Assembly: GCF_044324785.1 (NCBI RefSeq)
Contig: NZ_CP172127.1
Length of the DNA: 64,000 nt
Direction: 5' to 3' (one strand)
DNA from: Escherichia coli
GTDB lineage: Bacteria; Pseudomonadota; Gammaproteobacteria; Enterobacterales; Enterobacteriaceae
The position numbers and the translations under genes are program-made. The notes under the pieces were generated by a model. The model saw only the letters and a list, made by a program, of their open reading frames with translations. It ran no database searches and was not told where the DNA came from. This document shows positions 14,728 through 15,120 of this stretch, piece by piece. Every line of letters starts with the position of its first letter. The first letter of the stretch is position 1.

Positions 14728-15033
14728 TTACCTGACGTTGTATTCTTTTATGTTAACACCCTTGATGCTGTATATACCTGTCCGCTTAATTCGCTTACCC
14801 TTTTTATTCGTAATAGTTGCTGTAAGTGTACTGCAGCGAATGGAATGACGTTCATCAATCACCAGCCGAATTGCTTCTGAAGCATCTTCCACCTCTAGAA
14901 GGTCGTGAGTCTTATTTAAGCCGAATGGAACAAGGTGGAAGGCAGTTTTTCCAGATGATTTTCTGGTTATTTTTACTGGATACAACACATCACCACTTTT
15001 ATGGATTAATTCAAGCTGTTCAATGTAAATCAT
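14728..15033 (-). CDS. hypothetical ~101-aa protein with basic C-terminus; possibly a decayed downstream part of the yhcG locus
   Basis: ORF-track 14728..15069 begins at TTG; first ATG at 15031-15033 (MIYIEQLELIHKSGD...); same minus-strand reading frame as the yhcG remnant but separated from it by two TGA stops; no family recognised by eye. Confidence 0.3.
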   Translation of the reverse strand: MIYIEQLELIHKSGDVLYPVKITRKSSGKTAFHLVPFGLNKTHDLLEVEDASEAIRLVIDERHSIRCSTLTATITNKKGKRIKRTGIYSIKGVNIKEYNVR

Positions 15034-15120
15034 AGCAACTTTCCTTCGTTTATCTGCATGAATATACAAACCGAAAATAGGAGATGCAATACAAAAGCTG
15101 TGGAAATATCAAACAGCCTC

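Follow-up and report, generated by a model that had tools for sequence, protein, structure and literature searches.

The 64,000-nucleotide (nt) stretch of Escherichia coli DNA analysed here (contig NZ_CP172127.1; hereafter the window) carries, on the plus strand, nanT-nanE-nanK-nanQ (yhcH) and, on the minus strand, a remnant of yhcG followed by fimbrial genes. Between nanQ and the yhcG remnant, on an AT-rich ∼470-bp cassette (14653–15123), lies a minus-strand open reading frame (ORF) that encodes a protein of 101 amino acids (aa), or of 113 aa if it is read from the alternative start TTG at 15069–15067. We are highly confident that this ORF is a real, independent gene and not YhcG debris, and it belongs to an uncharacterised, conflict-associated family of putative DNA-binding proteins. 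The features of the locus are as follows.

14650–14660, no strand: right junction, where K-12 homology returns at or just past the nanQ stop codon (14650–14652)
14653–14727, minus strand: cassette 3′ flank, which contains two hairpins (∼14686–14727 and ∼14659–14681; RNA fold −34.9 kcal/mol, z −4.9)
14728–15033, minus strand: coding sequence of the 101-aa protein (ATG 15033–15031, TAA 14730–14728), from a family of uncharacterised small basic proteins
15034–15123, minus strand: conserved non-coding leader of ∼85–90 nt, conserved in six contexts, with single-base insertions or deletions (indels) in loci L005 and L013
15046–15041, minus strand: Shine-Dalgarno sequence AAGGAA, eight bases before the ATG at 15033
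15084–15079, minus strand: UCUCCU in the leader, complementary to the Shine-Dalgarno sequence
15089–15084 and 15066–15061, minus strand: promoter-like hexamers TTGCAT and TATATT, 17 nt apart and weak (8 of 12 matches)
15121–15126, no strand: left junction, yhcG remnant to cassette, CCAAAT / TGAGAGGCT, from a three-way alignment
15124–15435, minus strand: 5′ remnant of yhcG (DUF1016), a pseudogene (Pfam DUF1016_N; alignment to K-12 and E. coli strain S10)

A first-pass annotation of this DNA had described the minus-strand ORF with its first ATG at 15033, in the same frame as the yhcG remnant and separated from it by two TGA codons. Its coordinates, start and translation were borne out on re-reading, and re-translation reproduced the shared frame, both TGA codons and the 17 intervening codons (E A V stop Y F H S F C I A S P I F G); one TGA, at 15121–15123, bounds this segment and the second lies inside it. 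The remnant ORF itself (15121–15378) matches Pfam DUF1016_N with an E-value of 7.5e-19, and RefSeq labels the equivalent remnant an incomplete DUF1016 N-terminal pseudogene. In a three-way alignment of the window, K-12 and S10, the remnant of the window is more decayed than that of S10: its start region is deleted, it has suffered a 1-nt and a 39-nt deletion, and the sequence past approximately codon 120 (K-12 numbering) has been replaced. The 1-nt deletion, which the 39-nt deletion follows, throws the final ∼25 codons of the remnant ORF out of the YhcG frame. Because the tail of the remnant is thus already frame-shifted, the frame that it shares with the ORF is a coincidence.

On blastn comparison, K-12 homology (locus L002) ends at the nanQ stop (∼14653) and restarts at 15124 within the 5′ part of yhcG; across 14653–15123 no K-12 DNA homology was detected. 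These ∼470 bp stand in for ∼780 bp of K-12 DNA, namely the final two-thirds of yhcG together with the spacer towards nanQ. Since K-12 homology breaks off at both 15124 and ∼14653, the ORF lies on foreign DNA. The GC content of the cassette is 40–42% vs 50–60% in the nan genes, and the left breakpoint is identical in the window and in S10 and recurs in E. coli carriers. Collectively, the cassette was acquired horizontally and carries an intact protein-coding gene, and a single illegitimate-recombination event swapped it for the 3′ two-thirds of yhcG and the spacer. Its identity to S10 is 98.9% (five differences in ∼470 nt), compared with 95.7% for nanQ and ∼94%, plus two gaps, for the yhcG remnant; the cassette has thus diverged less than the DNA on either side, the identical junctions notwithstanding, and appears from these comparisons to be younger or more constrained than its flanks.

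As a separate observation, palindromes with the pattern CAGAC-N3-GTCTG recur in yhcG. In K-12, three lie in the gene and a near-identical copy just past the stop (locus L002, 1573–1598 and within yhcG). In the window they stand at 15130–15142 and 15169–15181, and the 39-nt deletion falls exactly between two copies. Possible roles are those of a binding site, a substrate for recombination and a terminator.

The first-pass annotation had also suggested that the ORF might be a degenerate C-terminal piece of the YhcG PD-(D/E)XK nuclease. This reading draws on the common strand and frame of the ORF and the remnant, and on acidic residues in THDLLEV…RLVIDER that loosely resemble a D…(D/E)xK core. 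The gap between the two segments had been given as 12 aa, but it is 7 aa (residues 42–48 and 56–62). The nuclease domain of YhcG spans residues 235–375, and YhcG-type nucleases carry a conserved E-D-E(I/L/V)K motif on a β-strand core (PMC1189080). The ORF, as described above, occupies DNA that has no homology to K-12 yhcG, next to a remnant whose own tail is frame-shifted. An internal YhcG segment to which the protein could be aligned was sought; the family profile gave an hhalign probability of 0.5% against K-12 YhcG, and BLASTP an E-value of 16. As to the motif, D60, E61 and R62 are each less than 60% conserved across 43 family members, and RLVIDER lies in the single α-helix of the predicted structure rather than in β-strands. 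Moreover, the ORF and its leader are found at loci without a DUF1016 gene. YhcG descent is therefore practically untenable for this ORF: the nuclease-domain part of YhcG has been deleted at this locus, not degenerated. What the ORF has in common with YhcG/DUF1016 proteins (PF17761 N-terminal domain plus PD-(D/E)XK C-terminal domain; COG4804) is the position of the YhcG C-terminus on the same strand and the character of an AT-rich accessory gene; in sequence, profile and predicted fold it is unrelated.

The other reading offered by the first-pass annotation, an independent small basic protein, was upheld. The 101-aa protein has an isoelectric point (pI) of 9.7, its own conserved leader with a Shine-Dalgarno sequence, DUF1016-free contexts elsewhere and a record of purifying selection. 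A search of 5.8 billion proteins returned 37 close relatives, most of exactly 101 aa and 82–93% identical, in hosts that include Enterobacter asburiae, E. cloacae, Yersinia canariae and Shigella; a 102-aa form with 59% identity was also found. Conservation and substitution rates among these fixed-length homologues were examined at five loci, where pairwise Nei-Gojobori ratios of non-synonymous to synonymous substitution (dN/dS) are 0.08–0.30. Because a fixed length is kept in other genera and dN/dS is this low, the ORF is more than a chance reading frame. Likewise, the window and S10 versions differ by three synonymous and no non-synonymous changes. Between 716 and 725 of 5,426 complete E. coli genomes (∼13%) carry the segment, in each case on the chromosome, in one copy and with the same junctions; the ORF is nearly always annotated as an intact coding sequence. 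Carriers include NEBExpress and B95, both of the B lineage, and in carriers such as S10 gltD comes after the yhcG remnant. In a tblastn search of plasmids, only three records matched, one of them a chromosome-sized 4.8-Mb E. coli record in the plasmid set.

The RefSeq/PGAP name of the protein is ‘transposase’ (WP_000639208.1), and Enterobacter and Yersinia records bear the same name. A transposase or transposition accessory protein would suit a cassette that is clearly mobile, and a 93%-identical homologue sits ∼265 bp downstream of an IS110-family transposase. Yet neither Pfam nor NCBIfam yields a transposase family match, even at E = 10, and inspection of the conservation table revealed no DDE, HUH-Tyr, Ser or Tyr-recombinase signature in the 101 aa. 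Around the ∼565-bp conserved block described below there are no terminal inverted or direct repeats, so no unit resembling an insertion sequence (IS) or a miniature inverted-repeat transposable element was seen, and E. coli genomes carry the gene at a median of one place, always the same locus. We regard a transposition function as hardly credible. The name, which has spread across E. coli, Enterobacter and Yersinia records without model support, is probably an annotation error, and the IS110 adjacency is a possible source of it.

The gene has a conserved leader. Approximately 85 nt before the ATG are kept in all six contexts, including the lambdoid version with only 59% identity. The single-base indels in L005 and L013 mark this leader as non-coding; therefore the ATG at 15033 is the start, and the 113-aa form, whose TTG lies within the leader, is not real. 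In four of the contexts, conservation reaches to approximately −250 and ends at the stop codon, which defines a ∼565-bp unit; the upstream conservation there (L003, 5743–6000; L005, 5747–6000; L013, 5747–6000; L040, 2570–2812) is 80–92% and equals that of the coding sequence. This ∼250-nt block of other genera has no conserved ORF, Rfam match or consensus promoter, and could have a regulatory function or encode a small RNA. Within the leader, a helix between the Shine-Dalgarno sequence and UCUCCU is predicted; covariation is almost nil, and the covariation term is unfavourable. The hairpins of the 3′ flank lack a U-tract and could end transcription of the ORF, of nanQ on the opposite strand or of both. 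This flank is missing from K-12 and common to E. coli carriers, while other genera share its first ∼15 nt only. Rfam gave no match in the window segment or in two homologous loci, and scans for promoters and terminators, the antisense strand included, found nothing above chance.

The cassette of leader and ORF recurs with 80–92% identity in L003, L005, L013, L017 and L040, between flanks that are unrelated to each other, as expected of an insertion independent of operons. Close homologues occur in at least six unrelated contexts in Enterobacterales, all of them mobile or accessory. The Yersinia homologue adjoins an integrase at icd, and that of E. cloacae lies within a prophage, at the edge of cargo genes. 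In Rac-like prophages, the homologue sits after a lambda-P-like gene, and the same prophages carry a SIR2-like gene of PADLOC type PDC-S25. Another homologue is directly behind a gene for a 592-aa dCTP-deaminase defence protein (PADLOC, 4e-128) and ahead of a gene for an S24 (UmuD-like) peptidase. In lambdoid prophages (L009–12), the homologue is convergent with gene N, 15 nt from the N stop, and it is likewise convergent with N in four viral contigs of IMG/VR (L034–37). Overall, the defence neighbours recognised by PADLOC are the dCTP deaminase, SIR2 with HerA, a PDC-S20/PifA-like protein with an HNH protein, and PDC-S25. We also noted that the dCTP-deaminase gene (L019, 1230–3008; L017, 4659–5681), which immediately precedes a copy of the ORF with 86% identity, seems divided or shortened in some contigs (340 and 407 vs 592 aa).

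In an exhaustive HMMER profile search of 1.84 billion representatives, the family comprised 55 clusters (50% identity) at E ≤ 1e-3; a 90%-identity database contained 145 family clusters. The members are mostly Gammaproteobacteria proteins of 93–117 aa (Vibrio, Shewanella, Aliidiomarina, Serratia), all named ‘hypothetical’. Searched against the window, the profile matched the ORF with an E-value of 3.8e-35 as the sole copy; an alignment of a tighter sub-family matched two loci among 100,044 species genomes and no viral contig. The family signature reads h-x-H-x-(S/T)-G-D-x-L-Y-P … T-G-x-x-A-F-R … E-V-E-D-E … G-Y-x-V-R … G-L-Y … S-I, in which only H11, G14, L17, P19, G28, R66 and G86 are at least 90% conserved (43 members). 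The median pI is 9.5, and 38 of the 43 members exceed a pI of 8.

AlphaFold2 modelled the protein from the 43-sequence alignment with a predicted local distance difference test score (pLDDT) of 93.3 and a predicted template modelling score of 0.83; with the close homologues alone the pLDDT was 46, and the confident model required the full alignment. The predicted topology is four strands, one helix and three strands. The 101-aa protein is thus basic and mostly β-strand, with one helix. Foldseek comparison of the model with the Protein Data Bank (PDB) and BFVD returned nothing at E < 0.1. Small β-barrel folds that bind nucleic acids (SH3-like, PAZ, Tudor/PWWP, OB, Sm) were also considered, and a structural relation to them is conceivable. 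Neither the 101-aa nor the 113-aa form could be assigned to a family in Pfam, NCBIfam (E up to 10) or PHROGs, where the sole match had an E-value of 0.15, and a Pfam scan of the 43 members gave no consistent match. The window protein matches no family in PADLOC 2.0, where the 43 members yield three single-member matches at chance level, and a sequence-profile search of the PDB found nothing below E 0.7. Thus, the first-pass annotation, which could not place the protein in a family by eye, was right in that no curated library contains it; the family is without curated annotation or a close structural neighbour. Literature searches on yhcG, on WP_000639208 and on genes between hsdR and hsdM likewise gave nothing on the 101-aa protein.

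Distant relatives offered clues to function. In P0140 from Sulfurimicrobium lacus, an HNH nuclease (residues 37–91; Pfam, 30.3 bits) precedes the family domain. In L027, the gene of a 244-aa protein ends 4 nt before a separate family-member gene; a profile of this partner collected 199 relatives, and the family domain forms the C-terminus in 27 of the 121 clusters examined. Distant members of the partner family exceed the Pfam gathering score for the uracil-DNA glycosylase (UDG) superfamily (25–38 bits), whereas direct PDB and Pfam searches with the 244-aa partner gave no UDG match. The partner family may therefore be called UDG-superfamily-like through transitive profile matches via its distant members. 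The partner family itself (L027, 5176–6279; P0059, P0073, P0171–P0204) numbers ∼200 clusters of 240–260 aa, none of them annotated. UDG-family glycosylases are documented antiphage effectors (Brig1, PMC11078745; Brig2, bioRxiv 10.1101/2025.10.29.685425), and the UDG-like partner proteins may be defence glycosylases. The resemblance of the recurrent partner to Brig1 and Brig2 holds at the level of the superfamily, by the same transitive matches, and the window protein differs from them in having no glycosylase part. A third N-terminal partner, of unknown family, is fused to the domain in P0050 and P0074; from short motifs compared by eye, it appears to be a separate upstream gene beside a P4-like integrase in L028.

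Another setting is a type I restriction-modification operon. L030 and L031–33 have the order hsdR-X-hsdM-hsdS, where X is a family member (P0043, P0084 and P0117 are those embedded in hsd operons) and successive genes overlap at their stop and start codons; the X proteins of two diverged hsd operons are ∼45% identical (estimated by eye). One of these operons is followed by SIR2 and HerA; downstream of the other are genes for a PifA-like KAP NTPase, for an HNH protein and for a NERD/UvrD protein. At the loci examined, neither the window gene nor its close homologues are within an hsd operon. As an additional observation, a gene for an RtcR-like CARF-AAA-HTH sigma-54 activator (PADLOC, 4e-188) precedes each hsd operon (L030, 1993–10089; L031, 1949–10025); a CARF-type regulator ahead of a type I system is unusual.

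The basic charge, the fusions and the neighbourhoods fit a DNA-binding or DNA-recognition module that is used in defence and counter-defence. As best explanation of the locus, we consider it moderately probable that the window carries an acquired gene of a conflict-associated family of DNA-binding type. That the domain specifically is a DNA-binding or DNA-recognition module in such conflicts is a reading to which we give slightly less than even weight, and a particular link of the window copy to type I restriction is doubtful. On this reading, the domain would recognise or bind DNA where bacteria, phages and mobile elements are in conflict. Distant relatives have it as the C-terminal domain of an HNH nuclease and of UDG-superfamily-like proteins, or as the product of a translationally coupled gene between hsdR and hsdM. 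The stand-alone window copy would most likely bind DNA alone and modulate in trans the access or activity of nucleases on DNA, whether as an accessory in defence or exclusion or as a factor that alleviates restriction. Its expression would start from the short leader of the cassette or depend on transcription that reads through from the dead yhcG.

Several known systems offer parallels. SRA, EVE/PUA and YTH are DNA-recognition domains that are fused to HNH nucleases in modification-dependent restriction enzymes; similarly, the family domain is small and β-rich, is joined to HNH and UDG-like proteins and occurs in defence islands. PrrC and SymE are encoded by small genes in or near type I restriction-modification loci, SymE beside the hsd locus of E. 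coli, and Ral and Lar are restriction-alleviation proteins. The family resembles these in that distant members are coupled between hsdR and hsdM and the lambdoid version lies beside N, but it has no homology to them, and the window copy has no hsd neighbour. Finally, rexAB and sieB are moron-type accessory genes of lambdoid prophages that are expressed in the lysogen. Like phage morons, the cassette is short, autonomous and AT-rich, has its own leader, is inserted in opposite orientation between phage operons and occurs in many unrelated backgrounds; it differs in that its best promoter match is 8 of 12, its hairpin lacks a U-tract and the window copy is not in a prophage.

A number of observations weigh against a conflict-related role of the window gene. 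The contexts of the close homologues share no conserved partner or neighbour gene, and the neighbours in the window, the nan and fimbrial operons, are not defence genes. The HNH fusion was found in one cluster only, and embedding in hsd operons in three clusters, of roughly 14 contexts examined. A tblastn search of 50,697 deposited phage genomes (INPHARED) gave no match. The copies of the window and of E. coli are cut at −85, so that the distal ∼165 nt of the ∼250-nt upstream block are gone (L017 is cut at −111), and a promoter scan of the cassette found no site with 9 of 12 matches and none above chance; with no consensus promoter, the window copy might be poorly expressed. The functional case is drawn from sequence, genomic context and predicted structure. 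The truncated upstream block and the missing consensus promoter would also suit a silent passenger, intact but unexpressed since ∼165 nt of its upstream region were lost on insertion. However, the ORF is still intact in ∼700 E. coli genomes and, against a divergence of 4–6% in the flanks, its window and S10 versions show no non-synonymous change; the copies of L017–L020, which retain 111 nt upstream, are intact as well, and same-strand read-through from the yhcG promoter is possible. A silent passenger is thus distinctly unlikely.

If the window gene acts on DNA in such conflicts, it may serve either party. That the gene runs against the early operon in lambdoid prophages and lies in defence islands favours a benefit to the host, whereas carriage on many incoming elements and the place beside N may allow a benefit to the element; lambda carries ral beside N, at the position taken by the homologue in lambdoid prophages. 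On the latter idea the stand-alone domain would be an anti-defence factor of mobile elements that competes with host nucleases for a DNA feature or an Hsd subunit and so protects incoming DNA. Stand-alone copies do lie on prophages, on integrase islands and beside an insertion sequence, one of them in the position of ral, and the same domain occurs within host type I operons and in nuclease and glycosylase fusions. But the lambdoid copy points against the early leftward operon and would therefore not be expressed early, and several copies are in defence islands and not on invading elements. Nor did Pfam detect any similarity to the Ral, Lar, ArdA or Ocr families; a weak Lar_restr_allev match in L010 belongs to another gene and not to the family member. 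The protein is basic and therefore not a DNA mimic. On this evidence an anti-defence factor is rather unlikely.

Another possibility is a small nucleoid-binding toxin-like or regulatory protein that would be held under translational control, by analogy with SymE, with the leader as control element. The protein is small, basic and β-rich, some relatives lie within hsd loci, leader and coding sequence are equally well conserved, and the UCUCCU of the leader is predicted to be able to pair with the Shine-Dalgarno sequence. Against this, that helix shows almost no covariation, the leader has no Rfam match, no antisense promoter or terminator rises above chance, and the enzyme fusions fit a targeting module better than a toxin. 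We consider this SymE-like role quite improbable.

Returning to the preferred reading, a DNA-binding-type conflict gene, we put forward a broader version only tentatively, and as an unlikely whole. The domain would be an undescribed DNA-recognition domain with a fold unlike solved structures, which targets UDG-like and HNH defence enzymes and forms the fourth, translationally coupled component of a type I subclass (RtcR-like regulator, hsdR-X-hsdM-hsdS), while stand-alone copies on prophages and islands, like that which took the place of yhcG here and in E. coli B, would tune restriction in trans, as defence or counter-defence. If the domain reads DNA or modified DNA, it would be a new recognition module for restriction and glycosylase immunity, and the extra gene of the type I subclass would be explained. 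The family is newly defined, being absent from Pfam, NCBIfam, PADLOC and the PDB, has a confident predicted fold without structural neighbour and bears a consistent genomic signature of nuclease and glycosylase fusions, type I restriction-modification operons, defence islands and prophages. At a minimum, an annotation is corrected, in that about one in eight sequenced E. coli, the B/BL21 lineage included, carry this gene under the name ‘transposase’, which lacks support, and the yhcG-nanQ junction is identified as a site where a mobile cassette replaced a nuclease-type accessory gene.

Upstream of the yhcG remnant on the same strand, the window has a further feature.

15436–19400, minus strand: chaperone-usher fimbrial operon (ORFs of 221 aa and 190 aa and an 813-aa usher), at the position of yhcF/E/D

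This operon had no megablast match in the 5,426 complete E. coli genomes, and coverage of 13500–17500 by any E. coli genome was at most 48%. The nan genes are 95.7–97.2% identical to those of S10. The window seems to represent either a divergent Escherichia lineage that shares the insertion or a replaced fimbrial locus.

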